From sequence record SRR20825006_1326: DNA of 20,000 nt, one strand, 5' to 3'. The notes below the pieces were generated by a model, which did not search any database, had not been told where the DNA came from, and was given only the letters and a program-made list of their open reading frames with translations. The position numbers and the translations under genes were made by a program. Below are positions 1-17,535 of this stretch, piece by piece (within the stretch, counting starts at the first letter, position 1; each line of letters begins with the position of its first letter).

Positions 1-2977
1 AATGGCGAATTTCATCAGCATGATAAATATCACTGCGATATTCCCAGAGAAACGAGACCATATCATTGTCAGTGAAATGTCTGTCGCGGTTCACCACCAA
101 ACAGTCCAAATCAAACTTGGTGGTTTTGGAAATCACCGTTTCATCTTTGCGCCAGCGCAGCCCGTCAATGTCATCCACATCAATCGGCGCATCATGGAAG
201 CCAAGCAAAACATTGAATAAGGGATTCTGCCCGCCAAACCGATCTGGGTTGAGCACCTCGACCACAGCACCAAAAGGCATTTCCTGGTTGGCATAGGCGG
301 CATCAATTGTCTTTTGCGTGTGCTGAATAAATGAAAGTGCGTCTTGATCAGGATCGATTTTGGCACGAAGCACCAGCGTGTTCACCAACATGCCGAGGAT
401 TGATTGGCTGTTCAGCCAATTTCGGTTGGCAAATGGCGCACCGAAAACAATGTCTTGCTCGCCAGAATATTGCCAAAGCATCAAGTTGAGCACCGCTGAG
501 GTGAAGCCAAAAGGCGTTACACCAATTTCGCGGCACATGTCCTCACATCTGGCCCACTCAGCACGGGTGAAATCGATACGCTCATAACCGCCTTCAAAGC
601 CCAATCGCGTAGATTTCTTACCAAATATCGGCACCGCACGTGGCGCATCTGCAAGTTGCTCAACCCAATAGTTTTTTTGCCGCTCCGCATCTGGTGAGGC
701 GAGCCATTCGGTTTGTGTGAGCAAAAAGTCCGAATATTGCGGCACTTCTGCTGGTGCAAATTCGTAATCGGGCGAAGCAAAATGATGATACCAGCCCATT
801 AATTCTGCCGTAAATTCTGAGCCGCCCCATCCATCATGCACAATATGATGTTCCTGATGCAGCAGAACATAGTGCTGGTCAGAGAATTTGATCAATGCAA
901 ACCGTGCCAGTGGCAGTTTGCTCAAATCAAAAATGCCCGGCAGCACTTCTGCAAATGTCTGCTTGATAAAATCCTCGCGCGCATCTGCCGCGACATGCGT
1001 GGCATCAATGCTTGGATATTCAACCTGGTGATGCGGCAAAATCTGCTGAACGGGTTCACCCTGATCTTCGAAAAAGACAGTACGATAAATCTCATGCCGA
1101 TCAAAAATCTTCTGCGCCGCGTTCAGCATCGCTTCAGGATTAAACGCGCCGTCAAAATGATGCACCGCTTCGGCAAGATAGGCTTTGCTGGTTGGGTCTT
1201 GGTTGAACATATACCAAGCCGCATTTTGCTGCTGCGACAGCGGCAACACATCTGTGTTACGTTGGTTCAGCTCAATCTGCACAATATCGGTCGCATCGCG
1301 CTCCAGCAGATCAATCAACGCGGCAAGTGTCGGTGCCTTCCGAAAGTCGCCAACTGCAACTTTGCGGCCAGTCATCTTGGATAGTTTGGCCAAAAGCCGC
1401 ATCGCACCAACTGAATCGCCACCAAGCTGGAAAAAATCTTGATCCAACTCGACATGCTCTCGTCCAACTTCATGCAAAAAAGCCGCACGCGCCACACTTT
1501 CCAAATCATCGACAGAATACGCGATTTCAGCATCAGCCGCCGCGAGGGCCGCCAAAGCCTTGCGATCAACTTTGTGATTCAATGTGTAAGGCAAGCGATT
1601 CAAAAATTTGAAATATTTAGGGAAATGAGAGTCCGGAAGTCGCTTTGACAGTACATCTTTCAACTGCGGCAATAATCCACTCTCGGCAGAACCAGCCACC
1701 ACGAACGCCACAAGATGACGGTCACTGCTATTGTCTCCAACAGCAATCACCGCCGCTTCGCGAACTTCTTTATGCTCCAACAACACAGTTTCAATGGCAC
1801 TGGTCTCAACGCGCGCACCGCGAATTTTCACTTGGAAGTCTGTCCGACCAACAAACTTGAAGCTGCCGTCTGAGACTGCTTGAACCTCATCACCCGTAAA
1901 ATACCGAACGAGGCCATCGTGGCCTTTAACAAAGCGCTCAGCGGTTTGCTCAGGCGCGCCCATATAGCCTTTCGCAAGGCCAAAGCCACTGATCACCAAT
2001 TCAAGGCTTTCCGGGTCTTGAGATAATTGGACATGCTTAAGTGGTGCGCCCAAACTGATTGGCATGTTCGGTTCAATTTTGCACAGACTGGTGCAAACTG
2101 AAGCTTCTGTTGGTCCATAACCATTGAAAGTTGGGCAAATCGCCGCCCAATCCCACAGCAGCTGATCATCAAGCTTGTCGCCAACGCAAATTAACGCGTC
2201 CAGCGCATAATCCTGCCGTTGTGGCAAATAGGGCGCCAAGGCAGCGGGCAATGTCAAATGCGTAATTTTTTCCGCAACGAGAAACGATGCCAATTCCTCT
2301 GGTGCCAACCGAGCAGCTTCCGGCACAATCGCCAATTCGGCACCATGCAAATAGGCCTGCAAAAATTCCAGCACCGCCGAATCGAAAGAAAGGCCCGTGA
2401 ATTGCGCAATGATTGAATTGGCATCCATCCCGGTGCGCGCACCGAAATCTTTTGCCGCCATCAACATGGCATCCAGCGTCAACATCACGCCCTTGGGTTT
2501 GCCTGTGGTGCCAGACGTAAACAGCACGAATCCCACTTCGCCAGCCTCCAGCGGGGCAGGTGTCGTCTCTTTTTCCACTTTGACTGCCTCTAGACTTTCA
2601 AGCGTCTGGAATTGTGTGTCCGCCCAGCCTTCAGGCTGATCGGTAATCACCAAACCACATTGCGCAGTTTCAACCAGATTTCGTTTATATTCTTCACCAT
2701 GTGCTGGATCGATTGGCACCACAACACAGCCCGCTTTAAGGCAGGCCAACATGGCAACAAATACATTCGGCCCGCGGTGTAGCGAAATGCCGATGGTGGG
2801 GCGTCCAAATTCTTGTGAGATGGGAAGGTTTAGGCTGCCAATTGCCGCTGCCAGCGCGGCAGCTCTTTGTTCTAAGCTGCCATAATCCATTTTCTGCCCT
2901 TCATAAGAAAGGGCGGTCCGGTTCAAATCCAAATGGTTGGCCGGGGTGGTGCGAAATGGATTTACAAAATCTGGCAT
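1..2977 (-). CDS. Non-ribosomal peptide synthetase (A-T-C..., 3' end outside window; ~992 aa visible)
   Basis: Manual translation from ATG 2977 (in-frame TAG at 2996-2998 upstream), open to the window edge: MPDFVNPFRTT... A-domain motifs FTSGTTGKPKG (~2489-2521), FDSAVLE, NGYGPTE, ELVISGFGLAKGY, YFTGD, GRTDFQVKIRG, NHKVDRKAL. Carrier domain DFFQLGGDS (Ser at 1412-1414). C domain PLSQQQ...RHEIYRT...EHHIVHDG (830-853)...GMLVNTLVLR...NQEMPF. Confidence 0.97.
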   Translation of the reverse strand, partial: MPDFVNPFRTTPANHLDLNRTALSYEGQKMDYGSLEQRAAALAAAIGSLNLPISQEFGRPTIGISLHRGPNVFVAMLACLKAGCVVVPIDPAHGEEYKRNLVETAQCGLVITDQPEGWADTQFQTLESLEAVKVEKETTPAPLEAGEVGFVLFTSGTTGKPKGVMLTLDAMLMAAKDFGARTGMDANSIIAQFTGLSFDSAVLEFLQAYLHGAELAIVPEAARLAPEELASFLVAEKITHLTLPAALAPYLPQRQDYALDALICVGDKLDDQLLWDWAAICPTFNGYGPTEASVCTSLCKIEPNMPISLGAPLKHVQLSQDPESLELVISGFGLAKGYMGAPEQTAERFVKGHDGLVRYFTGDEVQAVSDGSFKFVGRTDFQVKIRGARVETSAIETVLLEHKEVREAAVIAVGDNSSDRHLVAFVVAGSAESGLLPQLKDVLSKRLPDSHFPKYFKFLNRLPYTLNHKVDRKALAALAAADAEIAYSVDDLESVARAAFLHEVGREHVELDQDFFQLGGDSVGAMRLLAKLSKMTGRKVAVGDFRKAPTLAALIDLLERDATDIVQIELNQRNTDVLPLSQQQNAAWYMFNQDPTSKAYLAEAVHHFDGAFNPEAMLNAAQKIFDRHEIYRTVFFEDQGEPVQQILPHHQVEYPSIDATHVAADAREDFIKQTFAEVLPGIFDLSKLPLARFALIKFSDQHYVLLHQEHHIVHDGWGGSEFTAELMGWYHHFASPDYEFAPAEVPQYSDFLLTQTEWLASPDAERQKNYWVEQLADAPRAVPIFGKKSTRLGFEGGYERIDFTRAEWARCEDMCREIGVTPFGFTSAVLNLMLWQYSGEQDIVFGAPFANRNWLNSQSILGMLVNTLVLRAKIDPDQDALSFIQHTQKTIDAAYANQEMPFGAVVEVLNPDRFGGQNPLFNVLLGFHDAPIDVDDIDGLRWRKDETVISKTTKFDLDCLVVNRDRHFTDNDMVSFLWEYRSDIYHADEIRH

Positions 2978-3007
2978 CTTTAAAGATCTCAAATGCTAAG
3001 AATAAAG

Positions 3008-3023
3008 CGCCAATTGCTTGGCG
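3008..3023 (-). terminator. Possible intrinsic terminator/attenuator hairpin in the NRPS leader
   Basis: Minus-strand RNA CGCCAA-GCAA-UUGGCG (6-bp stem, GNRA tetraloop) followed by CUUUAUUCUU, about 30 nt before the NRPS ATG. Confidence 0.35.
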
Positions 3024-3093
3024 GTCCGGTCCGGGCAATCAAATAAGCGAATAATGTCGCTTTTATGCTGCTGCTGATGCCCACGGATAAAAT

Positions 3094-3170
3094 GATCGAA
3101 CCTCGCACCGTACGCCTAAAACTTTAGTCGCGAAAGCTAAAGCGAGGGAGATGAAGTGCGAGATCCGATC
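3094..3170 (-). promoter_or_regulatory. Long stem-loop (structured cis-element or small RNA candidate)
   Basis: GAUCGGAUCUCGCAC (3170-3156) pairs over 15 contiguous bp with GUGCGAGGUUCGAUC (3108-3094), including two G-U pairs that work only on the minus strand. Inner hairpin CUUUAG/CUAAAG (3142-3122). Followed by AUUUUAU. Confidence 0.5.
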
Positions 3171-3193
3171 GAATAGGGTGCAATGCGAAAAGG

Positions 3194-3289
3194 CTATAAA
3201 CGCACCAACTTGGTTGCGCCGAAGTGCATGGACACACAAATGATCATCGGCGTTTTTAAGTTTGTTCTTAAAATGTTTTTTTCGCCCAT
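3194..3289 (-). CDS. Putative 31-aa leader peptide/uORF (MGEKNILRTNLKTPMIICVSMHFGATKLVRL)
   Basis: ATG 3289 preceded at 8 nt by GGGAGGGA (3305-3298), TAG at 3196-3194. Co-oriented with and upstream of the NRPS. No recognisable homology. Confidence 0.35.
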   Translation of the reverse strand: MGEKNILRTNLKTPMIICVSMHFGATKLVRL

Positions 3290-3320
3290 AATGCTAGTCC
3301 CTCCCAGAGCATAATTGGCA

Positions 3321-3490
3321 ACCAAGTCATATGTTTTGGTCTCACATATGGCACCTGATATTATCGTTTTTGGTCACCGCCATTTTATGGTTCGGCAACT
3401 CGAATAAGCTAATTCCGATTTTTGCATCAATCCAATGCTGAATCTGCATACCCTATGCATCTCTTGCAATGGATATCCGATCCATATGAC
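3321..3490. promoter_or_regulatory. Candidate operator palindromes in the divergent NRPS/MFS promoter region
   Basis: ACCAAGTCATATGTTTTGGT (3321-3340, 16/20 palindromic), GTCATATGT-N9-ACATATGGC (3326-3352), TGCATA-CCC-TATGCA (3445-3459), ATGGAT-N5-ATCCAT (3469-3485), CATATGAC (3483-3490). Confidence 0.35.
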
Positions 3491-3604
3491 GTTACGCTGT
3501 CAAACTTGTGGCGTAAAAGAACGTATCAGTACGCAGGGTCAAAAGCCCACATCGCCAATAAAGATAAGAACGATCCAATAATGGACGTTTGGGGGGAGAA
3601 GAGC

Positions 3605-4849
3605 GTGGCCAATGAAAAGAAAGCATGGGGCTTTGTCGCAACTTTGCGCAGCTTGCCGCCTCACGCACAATTCTTCATTGTCGCGATCACTTTGACCCGA
3701 TTGACCAGTTTTATGGTCTTTCCGTTTTTAGCTGTCATTTTGAGTGAGCGCTTGGGCGCAACCGTTTTTCAAATCGGCTTTCTGTTTACCTTGGGCGCAT
3801 TTGTCGGTCTGGCGGCATCGCCTATTGCTGGGTTCATTGCCGATGGGATGCGGAAAAAGAATCTGATGCATGGCGCCAACCTGCTGACCATCATTTGCTT
3901 TCTGATTTTAGCGTTCTTGCCCAATCTACAGGCTTATTTTATCGCGATCACCTTGTTCTCGGCTGCTGGAGGGGTGCTAGAGCCGCTTTTGCGCTCATCT
4001 TTGGGCGAATTGGCAGAAAATGAAGAACAGCGCCCAGCGCTCTTTCATGTGCGATATTACATTGTGAACATTGCGGGCGCGGTCGGGCCATTCATTGGCC
4101 TCTGGTTTATTCAAAGCGGAAACAACTCAATTTTCCTCATCGCAGCGGCAAGCTATGTGCTCTTGGGCTATGCCATTCAGTTCAAATTGCCTGAAATTGA
4201 GGACGCGCCGACCGCCAAAGAACGTGGCTCAAGCCTGTCCGTCTTAAAAGAAGCATTCAAACATCGTCTATTTGTCGCCTTGTTCATCTCCAACTTGCTG
4301 TTGGTCTTTATCTATGCACAAACTGACGAGCCGTTGACTTTGCACATGATCAATCTGGGCGTGCCCGACCTGGCCGCGATCATCGCCATGCTCACTGTCA
4401 CCAACACAGTCGTCGTGTTGGTTATCCATGGCCTGTTTATGAAGCAGATTATGGAAATGGGAGAGCGGACAGCCTTTCTGATCGCCATTGCTTGTTTGGG
4501 CCTGTCGCTATTGATGATTGCCATCAACCAACAGCAATTTGTCTGGCTTTGGGTTTTGGCCATCGGGGTTTCAACACTCGGCGAAATCATTGCTTTGCCC
4601 ATGTTTCTCACCATTGTAGATCGTGTCGCGCCAAAAGATCAGCGAAACTCCTTTTTCGGCATCTACATGCTGTCCAATCTCGGGGGCGCCGTTGCGCCAT
4701 TGTTGGCCGCACAATTGATCATCACATTGGGCGGCCCAGTTTTGTTTTATGCCGCAACAGCCTTGTGCCTGCCATTGGCATGGATCGGCTATATCGCTTT
4801 GAAAGAAAAACAACCAATTGCGGAGGAGGGGGAGATTGAATCCGTATGA
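3605..4849 (+). CDS. MFS transporter (probable efflux pump of the cluster)
   Basis: About 12 hydrophobic segments and a motif-A-like GFIADGMRKK. Start moved from 3422 to the in-frame GTG at 3605, which follows a GGGGGGAGA SD. Confidence 0.92.
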   Translation: MANEKKAWGFVATLRSLPPHAQFFIVAITLTRLTSFMVFPFLAVILSERLGATVFQIGFLFTLGAFVGLAASPIAGFIADGMRKKNLMHGANLLTIICFLILAFLPNLQAYFIAITLFSAAGGVLEPLLRSSLGELAENEEQRPALFHVRYYIVNIAGAVGPFIGLWFIQSGNNSIFLIAAASYVLLGYAIQFKLPEIEDAPTAKERGSSLSVLKEAFKHRLFVALFISNLLLVFIYAQTDEPLTLHMINLGVPDLAAIIAMLTVTNTVVVLVIHGLFMKQIMEMGERTAFLIAIACLGLSLLMIAINQQQFVWLWVLAIGVSTLGEIIALPMFLTIVDRVAPKDQRNSFFGIYMLSNLGGAVAPLLAAQLIITLGGPVLFYAATALCLPLAWIGYIALKEKQPIAEEGEIESV

Positions 4850-5858
4850 AAAATTGGATGATCGCGCATTTTGGAAACTCGGCGTTGCCGAACCCAAACT
4901 GGGCGAACTAACCCAAGTCTGGCTTCCCAAATTTAATATAGAAAAGCAACATGCCGTTGCCACCGCCGGCTCATGCTTTGCGCAAAATATTGGGCGTGCC
5001 CTGCGTAGCCGTGGCATGAATTGGTTGGTCACCGAGAAACCACCGCAAGCTTTGCCACGCTCACTACACACAGCGCATAATTATGGACTTTTCACCTTTC
5101 GCACTGGCAACATCTACACGCCCGCTTTATTGGCGCAATGGGTGCGCTGGGCATTAGATAGATCCAGCATGGACCAAGAAGTGTGGGAAACAGACGGTCG
5201 ATTTTTCGACCCGTTCCGCCCATCAGTTCGGCCTAATGGTTTTGACAGCGTCGAAGATGTACTGGCCTCGCGCCACGTCACGGCCGATGCAGTCAAAACG
5301 GCAATCGAACAAGCGGATATTTTTCTGTTCACCCCGGGCCTTACCGAAGCTTGGGTCAACACAAAGTCAAAATCCATTTATCCAGCTTGTCCGGGCACAG
5401 TGCAGGGCACCTTCAACCCTGATGAGCATCAGTGCATCAATTTCGGTTTTGAGTCGGGCAAAAAAGCGTTGGCGAGTGCGTTCGACGCCATGCAAAACCA
5501 CAATCCAAACATCAAAATGCTGCTTACCGTTTCGCCTGTGCCGATCACAGCAACGGTAACTGGCCATCATGCGCTCACCGCCAGCACCTACACGAAATCG
5601 GTGCTGCGTGCCCTTGCTGGCGAATTTGCCAATGCCAATGAGCATGTGGACTATTTCCCGTCCTATGATTTGGTGTCGCCAGCCATGTTGGACCAGTCCT
5701 ATTTCAACGAAAACAAGCGAACGGTTTCCCCCAGTGGCGTCGATTATGTGATGAAGCATTTCTTTGAGGGCTTGGGGCAAGAGAAACAGTCCAGCCCGGT
5801 TCCAATGGGCGATATTGTCTGTGAAGATGAGATTTTAGAATATTATGGCAAAGCATGA
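4836..5858 (+). CDS. GSCFA-domain protein (SGNH/GDSL-like fold)
   Basis: Literal TAGSCFAQNI motif plus GNIYT, GLTEAW, LLTVSPVP, SKSV-like TKSVLR and YFPSY. Probable TTG start at 4836 (MNPYE...) after GGAGGAGG, overlapping the MFS 3' end. Confidence 0.92.
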   Translation: MNPYEKLDDRAFWKLGVAEPKLGELTQVWLPKFNIEKQHAVATAGSCFAQNIGRALRSRGMNWLVTEKPPQALPRSLHTAHNYGLFTFRTGNIYTPALLAQWVRWALDRSSMDQEVWETDGRFFDPFRPSVRPNGFDSVEDVLASRHVTADAVKTAIEQADIFLFTPGLTEAWVNTKSKSIYPACPGTVQGTFNPDEHQCINFGFESGKKALASAFDAMQNHNPNIKMLLTVSPVPITATVTGHHALTASTYTKSVLRALAGEFANANEHVDYFPSYDLVSPAMLDQSYFNENKRTVSPSGVDYVMKHFFEGLGQEKQSSPVPMGDIVCEDEILEYYGKA

Positions 5859-6507
5859 ATTTGCATTGATTGGTGACTCGCACGCAGGCACCATTGGCCG
5901 CGCTGCGCGGGAACGGGGCATCGAATTTGGCGGCGGCCCCATCGCCTCCGGCAAAGAGTTTTATTCAGATTTTTTCGAGGTAGAGCAGGGCAAACTCAGC
6001 TTTGTTGTGGAAGATACAATCCGGGTATATGGCGAACTGTGCCAGCTTTGGGGTGTAGATTGCATTGAAGATTTAGAGATTCCAATTGTCTCCACCATTG
6101 GCTCTGGATTTCATTTCCCAGCGGCACGCGCCGTTTGGGCAAACTTCCGCGACGAAAATCTAGGCTTTACTCAGGACTTTATCGCTGGCCCCATGTGTCA
6201 ATCGATCTTTCAACGCATGCAAGCACCCATGTTGGCCTTTCATCAGCACCTAGTCGAGCAGGGCAAAACCGTGTTTTTCGCACTACCACCACAACGCGTT
6301 CCAGACAGTGCATGGGGTGAACTGTTCCGTGCACTGCAAAATCGTGCCGTTAGCGAACTCACAAAAATTGGCTGTTCAGTCATCGATGTGCGCAATGACA
6401 CATCGGATAAGGAAGGCAATCTTCTGGCTGAATATTGCCAGGACAATGATCCAATTCATGGAAACACCGCCCTGGGCAAAAAGATGTTAGAGGCCGCTGG
6501 CCTCTAA
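5845..6507 (+). CDS. SGNH/GDSL hydrolase-like protein
   Basis: N-terminal LIGDSHA (block I Ser) and C-terminal DPIHGN (DxxH, block V). Start overlaps the GSCFA gene by 14 nt. Confidence 0.75.
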   Translation: MAKHEFALIGDSHAGTIGRAARERGIEFGGGPIASGKEFYSDFFEVEQGKLSFVVEDTIRVYGELCQLWGVDCIEDLEIPIVSTIGSGFHFPAARAVWANFRDENLGFTQDFIAGPMCQSIFQRMQAPMLAFHQHLVEQGKTVFFALPPQRVPDSAWGELFRALQNRAVSELTKIGCSVIDVRNDTSDKEGNLLAEYCQDNDPIHGNTALGKKMLEAAGL

Positions 6508-7379
6508 ATTTTCTCGTAAGGCTTTTCGCCCACAAGAGTTACCCGCTCACCAAAGCGGGAATAGGGGTAATAATCCCAAATGGCCCGGTGCTGCGTGCAA
6601 CGATTATCCCAAAACACCACGGTGCCAGTTTCCCACTGAACGCGACAGCTCAACAGCACCTCATGCTCAATCTGTCGGAACAGCATTTCCAAAATGGCAC
6701 GGCTTTCAAATTCAGTGAGCTGCAAAATGCGCGTCGTAAAACCGGGATTAATATAGAGCATTTTTGCACCCGTTTCCGGATGTTTCACCACAATTGGGTG
6801 CTCGATCTTTGGCAAATTAGGTGGCGCTTCATACCCAGCCCATGGCAATGCCGCATCATGGATCGCAGTCATACCTTCAAGCATTTCTTTCATGCCCGGC
6901 GAAAGCATCTCATAGGCCAAATGCATATTGGCAAAAACCGTATCACCACCGCATCCAATCTCCGGAATTTGATGAATGTGCAGCATCTGCGCCCATGCGG
7001 GCTGTTCCGATGCAGTGCCATCTGTGTGCCAAACTTCACCCGCCACAAACTGCGAAGCGTCCGAGGCTTGGATCAACACAATCTCGGGATCATCGCCATC
7101 AATATCTTCAAGTGCCATTTTCCGCAGCGTACCAAAATTGCGAGCAAACTCTTTTTGCTGCTCCGTATCAATTTTCTGATCACGGAAAACCAACACATGA
7201 TATTCATTCAGCGCCTGCCGCAACTCAGCAACCTGCTCTTTGCTGATTGGTTTTGACATGTCGATGCCACTCACTTCGCCACCGATAACCGGATTGAAGC
7301 GCTTTACATTGATGGTCTTAAAGTCAGTCTTTTTGGCCGTGGCGATCTTTTTGATCGCTTCTAAATTGGTGTGGTCCAT
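6504..7379 (-). CDS. TauD/TfdA-family Fe(II)/2-oxoglutarate dioxygenase
   Basis: IGGEVSGIDM, VLVFRDQ, WHTD (HxD), GGDTVFA, HPETG, WDNRCTQH, RFGERVT. Purine-rich SD upstream. Confidence 0.95.
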   Translation of the reverse strand: MDHTNLEAIKKIATAKKTDFKTINVKRFNPVIGGEVSGIDMSKPISKEQVAELRQALNEYHVLVFRDQKIDTEQQKEFARNFGTLRKMALEDIDGDDPEIVLIQASDASQFVAGEVWHTDGTASEQPAWAQMLHIHQIPEIGCGGDTVFANMHLAYEMLSPGMKEMLEGMTAIHDAALPWAGYEAPPNLPKIEHPIVVKHPETGAKMLYINPGFTTRILQLTEFESRAILEMLFRQIEHEVLLSCRVQWETGTVVFWDNRCTQHRAIWDYYPYSRFGERVTLVGEKPYEKI

Positions 7380-7418
7380 TTCTCTCTCCCAAATGACAAT
7401 TCTTCTTGTCCGTTTGTT

Positions 7419-8090
7419 TTAACTGATGGCCTGCTGCAGTTTTTCCTGCAATTCTGTTGCCAATTCTGCTTGGCTTTTTGGGCCCAAGGCATTCTGATAG
7501 CTGCGCATCAAGCCACGTAAAAATGCTTCAGGGCAGCTATTCAAAAATTCGTCGACGCTTCTTGTCTCAAAACTTTTTGCAATGCCTTCGCCCATCGCCG
7601 CACTCACCGTGCGGTTGAAAAAGGCGAGCATCGCATTGGTGTCAGTTTCGGCATAATATTCCGCATAATTCTCTGCACTGCCGAAATGCTCATTGATCAT
7701 GGCTTGATTTTTGCCAGCAAATTCCATGGCACTTTCATGCGCCGCATCATAAGTCGCATCATAGGCAAATGATTGGCCTGTTTGCTGCTCAAACATCTCA
7801 CGCAATGCTGCAGCCCAAAGTGTGCCAACATAAGTGCCGTCTGTTTTCCATTGCTGCGCCAAAGTTTCAACGCGCTGAAGGGGCGACAAATCCTCAGCCC
7901 GCAATTGCGAAACAGTTTTCGCCACGGGCAACAGCCCATCACAAACCCACTTAATCACCGCATCAAAATCATCATTTTCAACATTAGCAGTCACAAGCGG
8001 AAGAGCATTTTCCTCTACCGAATTGGCACTTAAAATGTTTGAGAGGGTGAGGGCCCAATGGCGATCATCATTCATTATTTGGAGCCTCAT
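7419..8090 (-). CDS. Hypothetical protein (223 aa, acidic, probably alpha-helical; alternative start 8075)
   Basis: Long ORF filling the gap between the PPTase and dioxygenase genes, co-oriented with both, with protein-like composition. No motif recognised. Confidence 0.8.
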   Translation of the reverse strand: MRLQIMNDDRHWALTLSNILSANSVEENALPLVTANVENDDFDAVIKWVCDGLLPVAKTVSQLRAEDLSPLQRVETLAQQWKTDGTYVGTLWAAALREMFEQQTGQSFAYDATYDAAHESAMEFAGKNQAMINEHFGSAENYAEYYAETDTNAMLAFFNRTVSAAMGEGIAKSFETRSVDEFLNSCPEAFLRGLMRSYQNALGPKSQAELATELQEKLQQAIS

Positions 8091-8097
8091 TTGACGC

Positions 8098-8127
8098 AGT
8101 ATGGCTTTTCAAAAATCAGTTGATCAA
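8098..8127 (-). promoter_or_regulatory. Possible internal sigma70 promoter for the hypothetical-dioxygenase pair
   Basis: TTGATC (8127-8122)-N18-CATACT (8103-8098), ending 7 nt before ATG 8090. Confidence 0.3.
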
Positions 8128-8153
8128 ACGCATCAAATTTTGACCCGCAAAAT

Positions 8154-8858
8154 CTATGATAAACCTAGCAATTCAGCGCTATTGAGGCAAGTCAGAACGC
8201 AGCCATTTACAGCTGAATTTACCGCTAAACAGCCAATTATTTCGGCCTTTGGATCATCGAAATCCAACAAGCGAAAAGAACCCGAAAAATCAACAACCGG
8301 ATTATGCGTATTTAGCCGTACATCAATAGTGTTGAGCTCATCAATCAACCCCGTTGCCGTCACCTTCAACAGCGCTTCTTTGCGCACCCACATGCGCAAA
8401 AACGCACAGCCTTGTTCGGCTGTATCTTTTTGGGCAATCCAAGCTCTCTCATTGGCGTGGCACACCATATCGATCAAACTGTCAGCTTCTTTCTTGCGCG
8501 ACATTGTTTCAATATCCACGCCCACAGCATGGTGCCGATGAAAGGCAACCGCAACCGCTTGTTGTGTGTGGGAAATATTGAAATGCATGCTCGGGAAAGT
8601 TGGTTTGCCATTTTCAGTCAGATCAAAGTCAATTGTAGGCAAGTCCAAGAAATGCCTGACCAAACTACGTCCCAAAATGTGCGCTTGGCGCTGTGCAGGG
8701 ACTAAAACACGATCAAATTTCGCCGCTTCGTTCGGCGTAATTTGAGGCGTTAACGCCTTGACTTCATCGAGTGCCGCATAAAACACCGCTGCTTGATCGG
8801 CATCTAGCGCCTTATGAATGCGCGACCGACATGCATTAAGTTGCTCATGCAGTGACAT
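8154..8858 (-). CDS. Sfp-type 4'-phosphopantetheinyl transferase
   Basis: ENGKP, FNISHT, VGVDIE and WVRKEALLK motifs. Likely start ATG 8858 (MSLHEQ...), overlapping the thioesterase stop by 14 nt. Confidence 0.93.
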   Translation of the reverse strand: MSLHEQLNACRSRIHKALDADQAAVFYAALDEVKALTPQITPNEAAKFDRVLVPAQRQAHILGRSLVRHFLDLPTIDFDLTENGKPTFPSMHFNISHTQQAVAVAFHRHHAVGVDIETMSRKKEADSLIDMVCHANERAWIAQKDTAEQGCAFLRMWVRKEALLKVTATGLIDELNTIDVRLNTHNPVVDFSGSFRLLDFDDPKAEIIGCLAVNSAVNGCVLTCLNSAELLGLS

Positions 8859-9564
8859 GGGTTTTTCGCGCCACAAAATCATTGACGATCTTCTGCAATT
8901 CCTGGCTGGACGCCTCATGCATATTGTGCTCACCGTCAATTTGCTGAAGGTCAAATTGCCCGCTTGTAAACTGAGCCCAAGGTTGCATAGTCTCAGGACG
9001 CGTCACGCTGTCCTGATTCCCAGCGATCCCCAGAATGTCGGTAGAAATGACCCGTCCGCTCACTGGCTTATAAGCCGCACACATCCGAAAATCGCTGATA
9101 ATTGTTGGCAACAATAATTCCAATAATTCAGGATATTGCATAAGTTCTTTAAAGTGTGGGTTGAACGCGAGTAAATCGTCGGTAATCCGCGCCTCATCTT
9201 CAAGCTTTGGCAAATGCCGCGGCTGGTCGGGTGAGGGCGACGTCAGCGCGATGATGAATTCAGGCGCTTGCCCGATCTGTTCAAACCGCCACGCCAATTC
9301 ATACGCAATCCATCCGCCCATGCTGGACCCAAGAAACGCAAAGCGATTCATTGGGCCAGCGCGCAGTTCTTCGAACACATCATCACAAAGGCGCTGAAAA
9401 TCGCTTGGTGTTACATCATCAAGCCGCACGCCGCGTCCCGGCAAGGTGACAGGGGTCACCTGCACATCATTACTCAGAAAACGCTCCCAGCTCTTAAATA
9501 TGGCCGCATCAGCACCAGCCTGTGGAAAACAAAACAGCTGCAATGCGGAAGTAGCGGCAGGCAT
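8845..9564 (-). CDS. Type II (stand-alone) thioesterase, GrsT-like
   Basis: LFCFPQAG, LPGRGVR, nucleophile elbow GSSMG, LLLPTIISDF, GEH. Likely start ATG 9564 after GGAG. Confidence 0.93.
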   Translation of the reverse strand: MPAATSALQLFCFPQAGADAAIFKSWERFLSNDVQVTPVTLPGRGVRLDDVTPSDFQRLCDDVFEELRAGPMNRFAFLGSSMGGWIAYELAWRFEQIGQAPEFIIALTSPSPDQPRHLPKLEDEARITDDLLAFNPHFKELMQYPELLELLLPTIISDFRMCAAYKPVSGRVISTDILGIAGNQDSVTRPETMQPWAQFTSGQFDLQQIDGEHNMHEASSQELQKIVNDFVARKTHVTA

Positions 9565-9686
9565 AAAAACAAGCTCCAAATCAATGCGCAAATCACCATT
9601 GGCATGCATATAAGCAGACCTGTTTCAGATTCACAAATGATTGGGAGAAAAGACGAAATATCCGGTGCAAGCACAAAAGCTCACAC

Positions 9687-9721
9687 AAAAACACACCAAA
9701 TTACCCGAAGCAATATGCGTG
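9687..9721 (-). terminator. Possible weak terminator downstream of tRNA-Lys
   Basis: CACGC-AU-AUUGC-UUCGG-GUAAU-UUG-GUGUG followed by UUUUU. The stem is interrupted. Confidence 0.3.
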
Positions 9722-9750: not shown

Positions 9751-9826
9751 TGGTGTGCCCGGAAGGATTCGAACCTTCGACCGTCCGATTAAAAGTCGGA
9801 TGCTCTACCAGCTGAGCTACGGGCAC
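9751..9826 (-). tRNA. tRNA-Lys (anticodon TTT)
   Basis: GTGCCCGTAGCTCAGCTGGTAGAGCATCCGACTTTTAATCGGACGGTCGAAGGTTCGAATCCTTCCGGGCACACCA: 76 nt, full cloverleaf, TTCGAAT T-loop, encoded CCA. Confidence 0.98.
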
Positions 9827-9918: not shown

Positions 9919-10842
9919 TCAGCTCAAATCTTCCAGCGGAATCCCATCAAAACTGCCTGCTTCACACACATAGCCCTGACGGATAATTTCTTTGCACAAA
10001 CGCAGCGCATCGTTCTCTTCTTCTAAAGGACCGACCACAAGTTGGATTTTATCTGATTCATTCACCACCGGAATCATCTTTGGTTCCAGCCCCAAAAGCA
10101 GGGTGCCCACATTGGCTTTTATGTTCAACCAGTTGAGCTCTGCTTTGTTTTTCTCGATTCGTGGTCCAAGAATCACACCGTAGATTGTTTCAGCACTCGG
10201 CAATGCGTCCATCGCATTCACACTGGCGGTGGTCATCGGATCAGTCTCCGCGCCCGCCGCAGCGTCAATTTCCGGCAACGCGGCCATATTGGTGATTTCG
10301 GTTGGCACCTCATTGCCATCTATATTGGCCACAATTTCTGGCAATTCCTGTTGCAGCTCGGGTGGCGCGCTCTCGGCCAAGGGCAATGTTTCAAAAAGGT
10401 AGGAACGGGCAACCTTCAAATCATCATCAACGCGAATAATCTCTTCGCCATTAGCTTCGTTGATCGAAGCGGTGATCAGGCTCTTGTCCAATTGCGCGCC
10501 AGGCGGCAACGCTTCAAGCAAAATCGGAATGCTGGCTTCCAGCGCCCGCACACGTTTTGACACAAAACTGTTGCTCTCTTCGCCTAGCGTAAGGCGGCTG
10601 TCTGCCACATTGGATTCGCGCTTCATTGCTGCAAATTCCATGCGCATGGCCCGCAATTCAGATTGCACTTGTGCGATTGTACCAAGATTGTTTGGTGTTT
10701 CTTTCAGCATGTTGCTCCAACCTTGTGGCAACAACAAGCTGGCAGAAGAAAAGACCAGCATGGTGGTAAGTGAAGCAATCGCAACAAGACCCCACAATCG
10801 CATATCTGATTGTGTAAACTTATTGAGTTCTTGTTCCGTCAT
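9919..10842 (-). CDS. Membrane-anchored protein with coiled coil and C-terminal SPOR-like domain
   Basis: N-terminal TM helix (LWGLVAIASLTTMLVF), coiled-coil stretch, acidic linker, and C-terminal YGVILG...W...LLLGLEP...LVVGPL...A..LC..I...G..C, typical of rhizobial SPOR domains. ATG 10842 or GTG 10845. Confidence 0.75.
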   Translation of the reverse strand: MTEQELNKFTQSDMRLWGLVAIASLTTMLVFSSASLLLPQGWSNMLKETPNNLGTIAQVQSELRAMRMEFAAMKRESNVADSRLTLGEESNSFVSKRVRALEASIPILLEALPPGAQLDKSLITASINEANGEEIIRVDDDLKVARSYLFETLPLAESAPPELQQELPEIVANIDGNEVPTEITNMAALPEIDAAAGAETDPMTTASVNAMDALPSAETIYGVILGPRIEKNKAELNWLNIKANVGTLLLGLEPKMIPVVNESDKIQLVVGPLEEENDALRLCKEIIRQGYVCEAGSFDGIPLEDLS

Positions 10843-10979
10843 CACTAGTTTTCCCCAAAAGAGCTGCGAATCAAACTGTTAACTAAGAATAATAATGCAG
10901 ATATAATTTACCATTTTGCCAACACATTCGTGGCATATGCCCAAATACAGGACTTAAAAGGGGTGGGGACCTTTATTTT

Positions 10980-12317
10980 ATGACCGAAATTTTGACGATT
11001 ATTCTGGGTGCCGGTGAGGGCACGCGCATGAAGTCTGATCAACCGAAGGTGCTGCATAAGGTTGGCGGACGCCCGATGATTGGCCATGTTTTGGCCGCTT
11101 GCGCCGAAGCTGGGGCCAAATCACGACATATCGTTATCGGCCCAGATCATGATCATGTGCGCGATTACGCTAAAACTGTGGATAGCCACATCACGACCTC
11201 CATCCAAAAAGATCGCTTGGGCACCGGGCACGCAGTGCGCGAAGCACGCGAAGCGTGGAAAGATTTTGATGGCTACGTGCTCGTGCTGTTCGCGGACAAC
11301 CCGCTCATCTCACCAGCGGTGATCGCTGATACGGTAGCTTGTTTGAACGAAGGGGCTGATTTGGCCGTCGTTGGCTTCCAAACGCCAGAACCGTTCGGCT
11401 ATGGCCGCATCCTTGTCGAACATGGGCAGGTGAAAGCCATCCGCGAGGAAAAAGATGCAACGCCTGAAGAGCGCAAAATCAAATTCTGCAATTCCGGCAT
11501 CATGGGCTTCAAGGCAGATTGCCTGCGCGCTGTGATTGATGAAATCAAAAATGACAATGTGAAGGGTGAGTTTTACCTCACCGATGCAGTAGAAATCGCT
11601 AATGCGCAAAACAAGCATGTGCGTGGTGTTGAATGCCCATTCGTCAACGTACTCGGCGTGAATGATCGGGCCCAGTTGGCTGAAGCTGAGCATATTTTCC
11701 AGCAGGAAAAACGGTCCCACTTCATGAAAGAAGGCGTAACCCTTGTTGCGCCCGAAACTGTATTTTTCAGCTATGACACCAAAATCGAAAACGATGTGGT
11801 GATCGAACCTAATGTCGTGTTCGGTCCCGGTGTCACCGTGGAAAAAGGCGCGCACATTCAAGCTTTCTCTCATTTGGAAGGCGCATATGTGGGAGCCAAT
11901 GGCCAAATTGGTCCTTATGCGAGGTTACGTCCCGGTTCCAATCTCGCAGCTGGCGTTAAAGTGGGCAATTTTGTCGAAACCAAAAAGGCAGAGATCGGCA
12001 AAGGCTCTAAGGTCAACCATCTTAGCTATATTGGCGACGCCAAAATTGGTGAAGGCACCAATATTGGGGCAGGCACCATCACCTGCAATTATGATGGTAA
12101 GAACAAATTTGTGACCGAAATTGGCGATAATGCCTTTATCGGCTCAAACAGCGCATTGGTGGCGCCTGTGTCCATTGCAAACGGCGCATATGTGGCGTCT
12201 GGCTCTGTGGTCACCATGAATGTTGAAGAAGATGCCCTGGCGATCGGTCGTGCACGTCAGGAAAATAAAGAAAACTATGCCGCGCGCATCCGTGCCCGGT
12301 GGGTTAAAAGCGAATAG
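10980..12317 (+). CDS. glmU: Bifunctional UDP-GlcNAc pyrophosphorylase / glucosamine-1-phosphate acetyltransferase
   Basis: GAGEGTRMKS..PKVLH, LGTGHAV, GYGRI, EFYLTD, GPYARLRPG, GNFVETK, NHLSYIGD, GAGTITCNYDG. Confidence 0.99.
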   Translation: MTEILTIILGAGEGTRMKSDQPKVLHKVGGRPMIGHVLAACAEAGAKSRHIVIGPDHDHVRDYAKTVDSHITTSIQKDRLGTGHAVREAREAWKDFDGYVLVLFADNPLISPAVIADTVACLNEGADLAVVGFQTPEPFGYGRILVEHGQVKAIREEKDATPEERKIKFCNSGIMGFKADCLRAVIDEIKNDNVKGEFYLTDAVEIANAQNKHVRGVECPFVNVLGVNDRAQLAEAEHIFQQEKRSHFMKEGVTLVAPETVFFSYDTKIENDVVIEPNVVFGPGVTVEKGAHIQAFSHLEGAYVGANGQIGPYARLRPGSNLAAGVKVGNFVETKKAEIGKGSKVNHLSYIGDAKIGEGTNIGAGTITCNYDGKNKFVTEIGDNAFIGSNSALVAPVSIANGAYVASGSVVTMNVEEDALAIGRARQENKENYAARIRARWVKSE

Positions 12318-12326
12318 GATCAAAAT

Positions 12327-14153
12327 ATGTGTGGGATCGTAGGTATTGTCAGCACGACACCTGTGGCTGAACGAATTGTAGATGCGCTTAAGCGGCTTGA
12401 ATATCGCGGCTATGACAGTGCAGGCTTGGCCACGTCCGTTGGCGGCGAAATTGACCGCCGTCGTGCGCCGGGCAAGCTGACCAATCTGCGTGAACGGTTG
12501 GAACAATCGCCGCTTGATGGCACCATTGGCATTGGCCACACACGCTGGGCCACACATGGCGCACCGACTGAGGAAAATGCCCACCCGCACACCACTAATC
12601 GCGTTGCCATTGTCCATAATGGTATTATCGAAAATTTCCGCGAACTGAAAAAAGAGCTGGATAAGGACGGCTATCAGCCTGTTTCTGAAACAGATACCGA
12701 AATCGTCGCGCTCATGGTTACCCGTGAACTGGATCGTGGTGCGGCGCCGTTTGATGCGGCGGCCAACGTCATCAAGCGGCTCGAAGGCGCATTTGCCCTC
12801 GCCATGATGTTTAAAGGTGAAGACAATCTGATCGTTGGCGCCCGTCAGGGCGCGCCATTGGCCATTGGTCATGGTGACAATGAAATGATTTTGGGCTCTG
12901 ACGCCATCGCCATCGCACCGTTCACCGACAAGGTGACCTACTTGGAAGAAGGCGATTGGGTCGCCATCACCAAGGACGATGCTCGTATTTTTAACCGCGA
13001 AGGTCAGCCTGTTCAACGCGCTATGGCGCAAACCCAATTGGGTGTGAACATGGTGGATAAGGGCAATCACCGCCATTTCATGCTCAAAGAAATTTATGAG
13101 CAGCCAGACGCGATTTCTCACACCGTTTCGCATTATTTGGATTTAGCCAACGGCAAGGTGAAGCTGCCAGCTAAATTGCCATTTGATTTCAAGTCGCTCA
13201 ATCGCTTGACCATTTCAGCCTGTGGCACCGCATTTTATGCAGGCTTGGTCGCAAAATATTGGTTTGAAAAATATGCGCGCCTGCCGGTTGAAGTCGATGT
13301 GGCGTCTGAATTCCGCTATCGCGAACCGCCTATGGATGCAGATGGCCTGGCGCTATTCATTTCCCAATCAGGTGAAACGGCCGACACGCTAGCTGCATTG
13401 CGCTATTGTAAAGCACAGGGCCAGCACATCGCCTCCATCGTGAACGCGCAGGAAAGCACCATTGCCCGCGAGAGCGATATTGTTTTCCCCATCCAGTGTG
13501 GTCCTGAAATCTCTGTGGCCTCCACCAAAGCCACCACGGCGCAATTGTCTGTGCTGGCCTCTTTGGCCATTGCGGCAGGCCGTCAGCGCGGCACAATTTC
13601 AGAGGCTGAAGAGTTTGAACTGGTCGACATGTTGGCAAAATTGCCCGGCGCCATCACCAAGGCCCTCGCATCTGAAGATAAGATCGACCAAATCAGCCAC
13701 GCCCTGTCAAAAGCAGATGATGTGCTTTACCTTGGTCGCGGTTCACTCTTTCCAATTGCATTGGAAGGCGCACTCAAACTCAAGGAAATCACCTATATTC
13801 ACGCCGAAGGTTACGCCTCAGGCGAATTGAAGCACGGTCCGATTGCCTTGATCGATGAGACCTTGCCAGTGGTCGTGGTCGCCCCATCTGATCAATTGTT
13901 TGATAAAACCATCTCAAATATGCACGAAGTTGCAGCGCGTGGTGGTAAGATCATTTTGATCACCGATGAGGCAGGGGCCAAATCTGCTGGTGATGATGTG
14001 AGTGAAATCATCATCGTGCCCGACGCTCATGAATTTGTGATGCCCATTATCTGTGCGATTCCAGTACAATTATTGGCCTATCACACTGCCGTCTTTATGG
14101 GCACAGATGTGGATCAGCCGCGAAATCTCGCTAAGTCTGTTACGGTTGAGTAG
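12327..14153 (+). CDS. glmS: Glutamine-fructose-6-phosphate aminotransferase
   Basis: MCGIVG, LEYRGYDSAG, GHTRWATHG, SQSGETADT, ELKHGPIAL, DQPRNLAKSVTVE. Confidence 0.99.
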   Translation: MCGIVGIVSTTPVAERIVDALKRLEYRGYDSAGLATSVGGEIDRRRAPGKLTNLRERLEQSPLDGTIGIGHTRWATHGAPTEENAHPHTTNRVAIVHNGIIENFRELKKELDKDGYQPVSETDTEIVALMVTRELDRGAAPFDAAANVIKRLEGAFALAMMFKGEDNLIVGARQGAPLAIGHGDNEMILGSDAIAIAPFTDKVTYLEEGDWVAITKDDARIFNREGQPVQRAMAQTQLGVNMVDKGNHRHFMLKEIYEQPDAISHTVSHYLDLANGKVKLPAKLPFDFKSLNRLTISACGTAFYAGLVAKYWFEKYARLPVEVDVASEFRYREPPMDADGLALFISQSGETADTLAALRYCKAQGQHIASIVNAQESTIARESDIVFPIQCGPEISVASTKATTAQLSVLASLAIAAGRQRGTISEAEEFELVDMLAKLPGAITKALASEDKIDQISHALSKADDVLYLGRGSLFPIALEGALKLKEITYIHAEGYASGELKHGPIALIDETLPVVVVAPSDQLFDKTISNMHEVAARGGKIILITDEAGAKSAGDDVSEIIIVPDAHEFVMPIICAIPVQLLAYHTAVFMGTDVDQPRNLAKSVTVE

Positions 14154-14228
14154 GCGGCAGACTTCGTATTCGCGATAAAATGCGCTAAAGCCGTTGTAAT
14201 GCGGATTCGGCGGTCTATATAGGTTTCT

Positions 14229-14966
14229 ATGATGAACGATAAAAACGATAAAAAGCATAGTGACGATAGCGCAGAACCTGTTCACCACACAGGCCCTGGT
14301 CGTCGACTGACGAATTACTTTTTGACAGGCTTGGTCATCGCGGCGCCTATCGGCCTCACGATCTACATCACTTGGTCAATCATTCGCATTGTTGACGATT
14401 TCGTCAAACCGTTGATCCCGTCACAATATAATCCTGACACATATTTACCGATCACTGTGCCCGGGTTCGGTTTGGTCATCGCTTTTATCGCAATCGTTTT
14501 GCTCGGCTTCCTCACCGCCAACTTGGTGGGCCGCACGTTGGTGCAGTTTGGCGAAAGCATCTTGCACCGCATGCCGTTCGTGTCCGTGCTTTATCGCGGT
14601 TTGAAACAGATTTTCGAAACGGTGGTCAGCCAAAGCCATTCAAACTTTAAGCAGGTCGGCTTAATCCAATATCCGCGTGAAGGCCTGTGGGCATTGGTGT
14701 TTATCTCCACCAGCGCCAAGGGCGAGGTGGCCGACAAAGTGCGCGGCGATGACATCATCAGCGTTTTCTTGCCCACCACGCCAAACCCAACATCCGGCTT
14801 TTTGCTGTTCGTCCCACGAAAGGACATCATCATTCTTGATATGTCCGTGGAAGACGGTGCGAAGCTGGTGATCTCCGCAGGTCTCGTTTCACCTGAATAT
14901 CAGGCGAAAATGGCAGAGCTGGCCGAAGAGGCCGAAGAAGTCGTCCACCAGAAAAACACCAAATAA
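14229..14966 (+). CDS. DUF502 family membrane protein
   Basis: NYFLTGL..P...T, two TM helices, YPREGLW, VFLPTTPNPTSGFL, MSVEDG.KLVISAG. Confidence 0.92.
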   Translation: MMNDKNDKKHSDDSAEPVHHTGPGRRLTNYFLTGLVIAAPIGLTIYITWSIIRIVDDFVKPLIPSQYNPDTYLPITVPGFGLVIAFIAIVLLGFLTANLVGRTLVQFGESILHRMPFVSVLYRGLKQIFETVVSQSHSNFKQVGLIQYPREGLWALVFISTSAKGEVADKVRGDDIISVFLPTTPNPTSGFLLFVPRKDIIILDMSVEDGAKLVISAGLVSPEYQAKMAELAEEAEEVVHQKNTK

Positions 14967-14970
14967 TGCG

Positions 14971-17094: not shown

Positions 17095-17227
17095 AAATGT
17101 TCATAAATCAGAACAAGTACGTCTACATCAGCCTAAAGGGGCAAAAAAATCAATCAGCCTGCTGACAAATCCAACGATTGATAATATTGAAGGCGTCACT
17201 TCCTTTCGCGTCTTCTAAGGTGATGCC

Positions 17228-17533: not shown

Positions 17534-17535
17534 CA

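Follow-up and report, generated by a model that had tools for sequence, protein, structure and literature searches.

The closest described relatives of the locus reported here are the ppp cluster of Pseudovibrio brasiliensis Ab134 (pseudovibriamides A and B), the mbp cluster (pseudobulbiferamides), published on a plasmid of Microbulbifer sp. MKSA007 (CP128431.1; PMC10616845), and the pip cluster of Pseudomonas entomophila L48 (pseudotetraivprolides; PMC12828459). These are hybrids of nonribosomal peptide synthetase (NRPS) and polyketide synthase (PKS) genes that carry the accessory gene set of the detoxin/rimosamide-like (DRL) clusters, also found in the miramide, rimosamide and detoxin clusters; ppp and mbp represent the proteobacterial type of DRL cluster. 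We analysed a 20,000-nucleotide stretch of sequence record SRR20825006_1326, called the window below, and concluded that its positions 1–9609 are very probably the right-hand end of a DRL hybrid NRPS-PKS cluster of the ppp/mbp type, in a Maritalea strain.

In the ppp cluster, pppABC encode an NRPS of seven modules ending in a thioesterase (TE) domain, and pppD encodes an NRPS-PKS with a TE. Gene pppE encodes a 4'-phosphopantetheinyl transferase (PPTase), pppF a type II thioesterase, pppG a transporter and pppK an Fe(II)/2-oxoglutarate dioxygenase; pppHIJ encode three unknown proteins conserved in all members (bioRxiv 10.1101/2020.12.15.422899, PMC11796379). The assembly lines of these relatives yield a ureido-peptide, a ureido-heptapeptide in the case of the pseudovibriamides and pseudobulbiferamides, and a larger depsipeptide (bioRxiv 10.1101/2020.12.15.422899, PMC10616845). 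The miramide, rimosamide and detoxin clusters contain a SpcZ-like hypothetical protein, a taurine dioxygenase, a putative protein and a GSCFA protein (PMC9503745, Table 1), together with an A-T-C-A-T-KS / KR-T-TE hybrid and a C-A-T-TE NRPS (PMC9503745). The pip cluster encodes a GSCFA protein (PipG), a hypothetical protein next to it (PipF) and another hypothetical protein of variable position (PipD); these three are reported always to be found together and to be exclusive to DRL clusters (PMC12828459).

Accessory genes of the window and their counterparts

The window contains the same accessory set. A GSCFA gene, an adjacent SGNH-like gene, an Fe(II)/2-oxoglutarate dioxygenase gene and a gene for a third hypothetical protein are the published hallmark of DRL clusters and not an unusual combination. 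A preliminary description of this DNA had proposed them as the tailoring set of a candidate undescribed system. That claim did not survive the comparison, since the set recurs in the miramide, rimosamide, detoxin, ppp, pip and mbp clusters; a GSCFA protein, an SGNH-like protein, a TauD protein and a small family-less protein beside an NRPS-PKS are a known signature and give no sign of a new system. The match to characterised clusters holds at the level of family and architecture, with amino-acid identities that are moderate (27–63%) rather than high. The cluster features of the window are as follows, with identities to mbp proteins from BLASTP.

2–2992, minus strand: N-terminal 997 codons of an NRPS (MarA, the gene in the PppA position), with A-T-C domains; frame open at the left edge
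1520–2956, minus strand: A1 domain of MarA, in the window NRPS
1304–1468, minus strand: T1 domain of MarA, with the GGDS serine at 1412–1423
2–1255, minus strand: ureido-type C domain of MarA, with EHHIVHDG at 830–853
2993–3580, no strand: divergent intergenic region separating the NRPS operon from the MFS-GSCFA-SGNH operon; promoters presumed, right limit set by the MFS start
3422–4849, plus strand: major facilitator superfamily (MFS) transporter, PppG/MbpG counterpart; Pfam MFS_1, 138 bits; 42% identity to MbpG over 402 aa
4818–5858, plus strand: GSCFA protein, PppH/MbpH/PipG/RmoJ/MirD counterpart; PF08885, 164 bits; 47% identity to MbpH
5845–6507, plus strand: SGNH-like 220-aa protein, PppI/MbpI/PipF/RmoK/MirC counterpart; 35% identity to MbpI
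6487–6507, no strand: palindromic hairpin, perfect 9-bp stem and 3-nt loop, overlapping both convergent stop codons (SGNH-like and dioxygenase)
6504–7379, minus strand: Fe(II)/2-oxoglutarate dioxygenase of the TauD family, PppK/MbpK/PipE/RmoL counterpart; PF02668, 194 bits; 63% identity to MbpK
7419–8090, minus strand: 223-aa protein without a family (218 aa if it starts at the ATG at 8075), corresponding to PppJ/MbpJ/PipD and to the "SpcZ-like" RmoM/DetL/MirA; 27% identity to MbpJ
8154–8954, minus strand: Sfp-type PPTase, PppE/MbpE counterpart; Pfam ACPS, 66.5 bits; 35% identity to MbpE
8845–9609, minus strand: type II thioesterase, PppF/MbpF counterpart; PF00975 Thioesterase, 101 bits; GSSMG nucleophile motif; 35% identity to MbpF

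Scans for open reading frames (ORFs), Pfam and NCBIfam families and tRNAs agreed with the preliminary description in the placement of all eight genes and of the tRNA beside them. Its three transcription units also stood: the strands are compatible with them, and the hairpin at 6487–6507, which has a terminator-like score on both strands, ends both convergent units. The MFS gene could start at the TTG at 3422 or at the ATG at 3581, of which the ATG better fits the MbpG alignment, and the likely start of the PPTase gene is the ATG at 8858. A scan of the window for the sigma-70 consensus gave fewer sites than shuffled sequence, and the divergent intergenic region had no such site; RNA-seq of Pseudovibrio is reported to show a promoter ahead of pppA (PMC11796379). 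The tRNA was the sole match in an Rfam scan of the window. All eight ORFs are intact, with lengths equal to those of their counterparts in the related genome G001 and 93–97% DNA identity. We concluded that the genes are real and belong together, as the right-hand end of a larger peptide cluster.

The catalytic residues expected of these enzymes were seen. The 220-aa protein had no Pfam match above threshold, and we call it SGNH-like because it has GDSH near its N-terminus (5872–5883) and DPIH near its C-terminus (6448–6459). Its Ser12, Asp202 and His205 are invariant in the homologue alignment and correspond to Ser18, Asp208 and His211 of PipF, of which Ser18 and His211 are required for the acetylated product (PMC12828459). 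The GSCFA motif lies at 4968–4982, with Ser52 and Cys53 invariant in 19 aligned homologues; the HxD motif of the dioxygenase is His118-Asp120, and the type II thioesterase has its GxSxG. For the 223-aa protein, Pfam and NCBIfam searches gave no family, a word-indexed search gave 7 homologues among 220 scored candidates, and the Protein Atlas returned only unnamed "hypothetical protein" clusters (score 0.91, low recognition). Against a plasmid collection, tblastn with this protein found a single record, the mbp plasmid CP128431.1 of Microbulbifer sp. MKSA007 (E 1e-7). The annotation of that record reads as an NRPS gene divergent from genes for an MFS transporter, a GSCFA protein, two hypothetical proteins and TauD, followed by MbpB, MbpC, MbpD, a PPTase and a hydrolase.

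Co-conservation was measured on loci found by scanning the SGNH-like alignment against one genome per species. The scan gave 393 stretches with the pattern, 173 of which encode a relative, and the counts below are for the best 80 of these 173 confirmed relatives with up to 10 kb kept on each side; some misses are contig ends. By title the 80 loci come from Maritalea (3), a Sulfitobacter metagenome-assembled genome (MAG), a Roseibium MAG, Aestuariispira, Pseudovibrio (2), Parachitinimonas, Pseudomonas, many Streptomyces, Kitasatospora, Micromonospora and other Actinomycetota. Results of tblastn showed the GSCFA gene directly upstream of the SGNH-like gene on the same strand in 80/80 loci and the dioxygenase gene nearby in 79/80. 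With window or G001 queries, KS-KR sequence was detected in 66, an A domain in 76 and a C domain in 73 of the 80, and the MFS, type II thioesterase-like and PPTase genes in 10/80, 15/80 and 4/80. The 223-aa family was detected in 16/80 loci by tblastn, 40/80 by phmmer and 66/80 by an iterated hidden Markov model (HMM), and all its members lie within a few kb downstream of the GSCFA/SGNH-like pair. Because the set is co-conserved in 79–80 of the 80 loci, its association goes beyond chance, and the co-occurrence that the preliminary description had wanted checked is borne out for the GSCFA gene, the dioxygenase gene and, by iterated HMM, the third protein. Its view of the PPTase, type II thioesterase, transporter and dioxygenase as a self-contained accessory set also fits, and the genes are co-conserved in other loci. 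Two GSCFA/SGNH-like/dioxygenase sets were seen per genome in one Actinomycetota MAG (L035 and L037, on one contig) and in Streptomyces sp. NBC_01384 (L056 and L065); some actinomycetes therefore carry two DRL-type clusters.

A maximum-likelihood tree of the dioxygenase (the window and 79 loci) placed the window with the three Maritalea loci (support 100/98). Next outward came the Sulfitobacter MAG (100/100), the Roseibium MAG (100/96), Pseudovibrio (99/85) and Aestuariispira (99/97), although Aestuariispira and Roseibium sit on long end branches and their exact placement is unsure. This alphaproteobacterial group was sister to Pseudomonas, with the Actinomycetota across the midpoint root.

The assembly line in a close relative

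The preliminary description had placed the rest of the NRPS to the left of the window, and this proved right: the frame is open at the edge, and the genome G001, 95% identical to the window over 1–9700, shows five open megasynthase ORFs there. We read the left part of the cluster from G001, taking architectures from Pfam and a home-made A-domain HMM, and for convenience named the proteins MarA to MarE.

MarA, 1631 aa: A-T-C-A-T
MarB, 2125 aa: dock-C-A-T-C-A-T
MarC, 3408 aa: C-A-T-C-A-T-Cy-A-T-Ox, the Ox being a Nitroreductase domain and the Cy motif of DxxxxD type
MarD, 1336 aa: dock-C-A-T-TE, the dock being TubC_N
MarE, 3050 aa: A-T-C-A-T-KS-KR-ACP-TE (AMP-binding twice, Condensation, ketoacyl-synt, KR, PP-binding three times, Thioesterase)
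Left of the megasynthases: Opp-type ABC importer, LysR regulator and patatin-like gene

In all, the line contains ten A domains, a single PKS module and a pair of TE domains, and no acyltransferase (AT) domain was found in MarE by the Pfam scan. The product is therefore no small peptide, and the "one small oxidised peptide" first proposed for this cluster gives way to a product of two TE-terminated lines.

The G001 line matches ppp and mbp along most of its length. MarC, MarD and MarE are full-length counterparts of PppB/MbpB (ending Cy-A-T-Ox), PppC/MbpC (C-A-T-TE) and PppD/MbpD: identity is 42.5% between MarC and MbpB (3412 aligned positions), 43.7% between MarD and MbpC (1359, full length) and 40.5% between MarE and MbpD (2087). 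As in ppp and mbp, a Cy-A(Cys)-T-Ox module follows the Arg and Pro modules and precedes a Gln module with TE. The window itself shares with both clusters the accessory set G, H, I, J, K, E and F, the NRPS gene divergent from G-H-I, and a loading A-T ahead of a C domain that carries EHHXXHDG. Differences were found in the order of the remaining genes, the J-K pair being inverted here and joined to E-F in one minus-strand unit, and in the absence of a GNAT (pppM-like) gene from the window. Two proteins (1631 and 2125 aa) stand in the place of PppA, and eight A domains precede the first TE in G001 (2+2+3+1) and seven in mbp; the Thr second module and the trimodular PppA, with seven modules to the first TE, have no equivalent here. 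Finally, ppp and mbp are plasmid-borne (bioRxiv 10.1101/2020.12.15.422899, PMC10616845), whereas this cluster is chromosomal and lies beside a tRNA-Lys gene.

More distant relatives share less. The pip cluster has a PipE dioxygenase and the PipG/PipF/PipD trio as in the window (PMC12828459), and like G001 an AT-less PipC-type NRPS-PKS and two TE domains. It differs in having only the PipA/B tetrapeptide line without a ureido start, an N-acetyltransferase (PipH), and neither PPTase nor type II thioesterase; a cluster-borne PPTase and type II thioesterase are present in the window, Pseudovibrio and Microbulbifer and absent from Pseudomonas. Identities between Pseudomonas loci and the window are 35–37% (SGNH-like), 46–50% (GSCFA) and 57–61% (dioxygenase). 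The detoxin, rimosamide and miramide clusters of Streptomyces share the four accessory genes and an RmoI/RmoH-type pair (A-T-C-A-T-KS-KR-T-TE and C-A-T-TE), and the DRL-type gene order is equal in dozens of Streptomyces, Kitasatospora and Micromonospora loci. These clusters have a much shorter acyl or peptide arm, lack the ureido start and the thiazole module, and have dioxygenases in a separate clade of the tree.

The nearest relative outside Maritalea is the uncharacterised Sulfitobacter MAG locus (L025, JBPOFF010000014.1), the only non-Maritalea locus among the 80 with a MarA-like first NRPS. That protein is 53% identical to MarA and collinear with it (1657 vs 1631 aa), and it carries EHHIVHDG and the A2 code DAGCAGLIDK, the same as in Maritalea. 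The accessory genes stand in the same order and orientation with 43–80% identity, but tblastn found no PPTase within the 10-kb flank.

The window also holds the motif that defines how the peptide should begin. Its C domain carries EHHIVHDG where the first C domain of MbpA has EHHLVHDG. EHHXXHDG is the active-site signature of ureido-forming C domains, is absent from all other C domains in MIBiG, and in the examples known so far is reported to be both necessary and sufficient for a ureido bond to form (PMC11212132). The product should therefore begin with residue 1-urea-residue 2, as in the pseudovibriamides, and residues 1 and 2 are accordingly expected to be ureido-linked if the motif acts as it does elsewhere. 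Nine of the 80 DRL loci, both Pseudovibrio loci among them, have an NRPS ORF with EHHXXHDG.

Pocket codes of ten positions were read from 20 aligned A-domain rows (G001, window and mbp).

Window A1 (MarA): DSLTIVGVCK, against DASTVAAVCK (Tyr) in Pseudovibrio and DAFTVAAVWK (Phe) in Microbulbifer
MarA A2: DAGCAGLIDK, not a Thr code
MarB A1: DAFFIGIGYK
MarB A2: DITQLGVVWK, resembling the MbpA Ala/Gly domain DIVQLGLVYK
MarC A1: DVADLGAVDK, near MbpB DVADVGAIDK
MarC A2: DVQFIAHVVK, near MbpB DVQHIAQIVK
MarC A3: DLYNMSLIWK, identical to MbpB
MarD A: DAWQFGVVDK, identical to MbpC
MarE A1: DAFFLGVTFK, near MbpD
MarE A2: DVQFVAHVVK, near MbpD

The ppp and mbp codes that stand for Arg, Pro, Cys, Gln, Ile/Val and Pro thus recur in G001 unchanged or nearly unchanged. 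To our knowledge, the A1, A2 and A3 codes match no canonical code. Because the A2 code is not that of Thr, no dehydrobutyrine is expected at residue 2. At the MarC, MarD and MarE positions the known products have Arg, Pro, Cys (converted to thiazole), Gln, Val/Ile/Leu and Pro (bioRxiv 10.1101/2020.12.15.422899), and we predict this conserved half of the product with some confidence from the codes. As a separate observation, the A10 core of the A1 domain is LNHKVD, where the other 17 aligned G001 and mbp A domains have (N/S/Q)GK(I/V/L)D; the lysine is kept.

Proposed biosynthesis and alternative explanations

A loading A-T and the ureido-forming C domain, whose domains and motif are present in the window, would start the peptide. 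Judging from G001, the peptide line has eight NRPS modules with a TE at the end and would make a ureido-linked octapeptide, which is predicted to finish in Arg-Pro-thiazole-Gln, as pseudovibriamide A does. The PppD-type enzyme, also read in G001 and AT-less, would build an Ile/Val-Pro unit extended by malonate. By analogy with the relatives, housekeeping FabD would provide the malonate in trans: FabD loads the AT-less PKS module and transacylates the PipC ACP in vitro, and PipC alone made its product in E. coli (PMC12828459). The TE of the peptide line, which forms the ester in pip (PMC12828459), would join the peptide by an ester bond to the beta-hydroxyl that the KR domain creates. The dioxygenase probably hydroxylates the proline ring of the PppD-type unit, as PipE does (PMC12828459) and as the PppK counterpart does to the proline unit in Pseudovibrio (PMC11796379). 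The GSCFA protein, the SGNH-like protein and the family-less protein would together O-acylate the proline hydroxyl; deletion of any one of PipD, PipF or PipG blocks the last O-acetylation (PMC12828459). Pseudovibrio products carry a propionyl group on the hydroxyproline; those of Pseudomonas and the detoxins carry an acetyl group. The PPTase would prime the carrier domains and the type II thioesterase would proofread them: in Pseudovibrio, loss of the PPTase abolishes all products, and loss of the type II thioesterase lowers the yield (PMC11796379).

Several points weigh against assigning the locus to the ppp/mbp type with this route. The remaining NRPS genes and the PppD-type gene were seen in G001 and two congeners only, and in the window strain the remaining megasynthase genes could be broken or missing; the Maritalea product is a prediction. 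MarA and MarB are ~30% identical to MbpA, which is the background between any NRPS modules, and they have four modules where PppA/MbpA have three. The other ureido-type loci examined (Pseudovibrio, Microbulbifer, Roseibium, Aestuariispira and a further MAG, L066) share a Thr-like A2 code, DFW(S/N)(V/I)GMVHK, from which DAGCAGLIDK differs; since this code is not that of Thr, the N-terminal half of the product would be no pseudovibriamide. The pocket positions were anchored on core motifs, and the one check on the anchoring was that the mbp Thr, Cys and Pro domains gave near-canonical codes. The 223-aa protein has a low identity to MbpJ (27%). Deletion of pppG in Pseudovibrio left export without a significant change (PMC11796379), so that the MFS protein is no more than a putative exporter.

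The last point against the proposed route concerns the accessory trio, and it leads to the alternative that we took most seriously while considering it unlikely: a cluster of the same family in which the trio acts earlier, in making or releasing the Ile/Val-Pro-malonate unit, for example by loading or transfer at the AT-less PKS module, and is not the final O-acyltransferase. In-frame deletions of pppH, pppI and pppJ lose all PppD-derived products and leave pseudovibriamide A only, with no de-propionylated analogue seen, and the authors raise trans-acyltransferase loading as a possibility (PMC11796379). The Maritalea dioxygenase, a neighbour of the trio, falls in the marine alphaproteobacterial ppp-type clade and not with Pseudomonas. 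On the other side, pipD, pipF and pipG deletions in P. entomophila accumulated the hydroxylated, non-O-acetylated full-length product (PMC12828459), the sufficiency of PipC in E. coli and the FabD activity described above also count against it, and the two PipF residues needed for acetylation have equivalents that are invariant in the window family. The pppHIJ and pipDFG deletions thus differ in outcome, and the job proposed here for the trio is provisional. That the cluster is decaying or silent in the window strain, with the NRPS broken past the edge or the PppD-type gene lost and no full product made, we regard as improbable. What can be seen of the first NRPS in the window is 997 codons, and the block is patchy in the genus (3/9 genomes searched); yet the eight window ORFs are intact at G001-equal lengths and 93–97% DNA identity, the five G001 megasynthase ORFs are open, and the catalytic motifs are kept.

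Two further explanations fared worse. A siderophore cluster, with a thiazoline/thiazole NRPS-PKS, a TauD-type beta-hydroxylase, an MFS exporter and an ABC importer, would account for the Cy module with Ox in G001 and for the Opp-type ABC importer beside the megasynthases. However, the megasynthases are full-length MbpB, MbpC and MbpD counterparts, the dioxygenase shares 63% identity with MbpK, and in Pseudovibrio the corresponding enzyme hydroxylates a proline unit (PMC11796379); the mbp and ppp products are ureidopeptides and depsipeptides, not described as iron chelators. Neither a TonB-dependent receptor nor a salicylate/DHB-loading domain was found among the G001 ORFs tested. We rejected this explanation, as very improbable, on the strength of the mbp-type megasynthases and the MbpK-like dioxygenase. 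Least probable of all, and in our view scarcely credible, is an undescribed pathway in which a new tailoring combination yields a single small oxidised peptide. Of the eight proteins, two do lack a Pfam or NCBIfam family and found few homologues in the word-indexed search, but the four accessory genes are tabulated for miramide, rimosamide and detoxin (PMC9503745), and pppH-K and pipD-G have been named and studied by knockout (PMC11796379, PMC12828459). The set moreover co-occurs in 79–80 of the 80 loci, among them Pseudomonas, Pseudovibrio, Streptomyces and Micromonospora, and the line has ten A domains and a PKS module. A reading of the window genes as independent neighbours was also rejected.

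The tRNA-Lys block and its implications

The right border of the cluster and the genes beyond it in the window are:

9751–9826, minus strand: tRNA-Lys(UUU), right border of a block of ~48 kb
9919–10845, minus strand: 308-aa ORF with an N-terminal hydrophobic stretch, without Pfam or NCBIfam family
10980–20000: glmU, glmS, a DUF502 gene, recG and mfd (first 821 codons), all housekeeping genes; NCBIfam scores reach equivalog level in the case of glmU, glmS and recG

The SGNH-like query had a match in 3 of 201 genomes of the family of G001, all three in its own genus (3/9), and in none of 192 genomes from 23 other genera of the family. A congener, G007 (completeness 100%), has an empty site in which the tRNA-Lys gene lies 80 bp from a gene for a 213-aa protein; the G001 homologue of that gene is ~49 kb from its tRNA-Lys gene, at the far left of the block. 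A 298-aa counterpart of the 308-aa ORF stands beside the tRNA-Lys gene in G007, and the 308-aa ORF therefore belongs to the core genome and lies outside the cluster.

DNA identity between the window and the congener represented by L023/L010 was 88–95% over nine cluster segments and 96.8% for the tRNA segment, and beyond the tRNA it fell to 75.6% (308-aa ORF), 77.1% (glmU) and 81.1% (glmS). The contrast was weaker with L024/L011 (cluster 76–92%, flank 75–81%). At the left end, G001 and G053 are 92% identical in the LysR and Opp genes and 74% in the 213-aa gene; the LysR gene and a five-gene Opp-type peptide ABC importer (L004:1743–8193 in G001) lie within the high-identity block. At the left block end of G001 there is also a gene for a patatin-like phospholipase (L004:474–1640); G053 has no match to it at that place (gap ~116 bp), and G007 has a 68% match elsewhere in its genome.

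The identity step falls exactly at tRNA-Lys, so that exchange of the block seems more recent than the divergence of the core genomes. In our reading of these comparisons, Maritalea species exchanged, after their divergence, a block of ~48 kb that runs from LysR through the Opp genes, the megasynthase genes and the accessory genes as far as tRNA-Lys. A direct repeat of the tRNA-Lys 3' end was not found: no 12-mer occurred at the left end of the block, and one stray 12-mer lay inside an NRPS gene. No integrase was seen among 12 G001 ORFs scanned. With neither a repeat of the tRNA end nor an integrase, the block cannot be called a classical integrative island, and homologous recombination via the conserved flanks and site-specific integration appear equally likely as the means of transfer. 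The LysR regulator and Opp importer may belong to the cluster in function, perhaps by taking up or sensing what it makes.

Full-text literature gave no match for "Maritalea" together with "NRPS" (figures and supplements were not covered), and "Maritalea" does not occur in the accessible text of PMC11796379 or PMC10616845, supplements again not covered; a published cluster comparison may already include the genus. New here are the host genus Maritalea, the chromosomal location adjacent to tRNA-Lys, and the split four-module N-terminal half of the NRPS, which is not orthologous to MbpA.

We tentatively suggest, with rather more doubt than attaches to the family assignment and at somewhat less than even chances, that Maritalea and the Sulfitobacter MAG carry a distinct ppp sub-type. 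Its product would be a ureido-started octapeptide whose first three residues are unlike those of all described members and which has no dehydrobutyrine, esterified to an acyl-hydroxyproline unit; the cluster would travel as a block of ~48 kb adjacent to tRNA-Lys together with LysR and the Opp importer, and the product or its ureidopeptide half would be taken up again. The pairing of the LysR/Opp importer with the cluster suggests that the exported depsipeptide or its ureidopeptide half is re-imported, as a signal or as a shared "antidote" good. DRL compounds are known as "anti-antibiotics" that protect Bacillus against blasticidin S (PMC12828459; PMC12911931), and the ureidopeptide half alters motility and transcription in Pseudovibrio (PMC11796379). 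The chromosomal Maritalea version, with its altered N-terminal peptide, would be a natural structural variant for mapping activities to parts of the molecule. The comparison of empty and filled sites, with the step in identity at tRNA-Lys, points to a spread of the cluster among marine Alphaproteobacteria without a plasmid.

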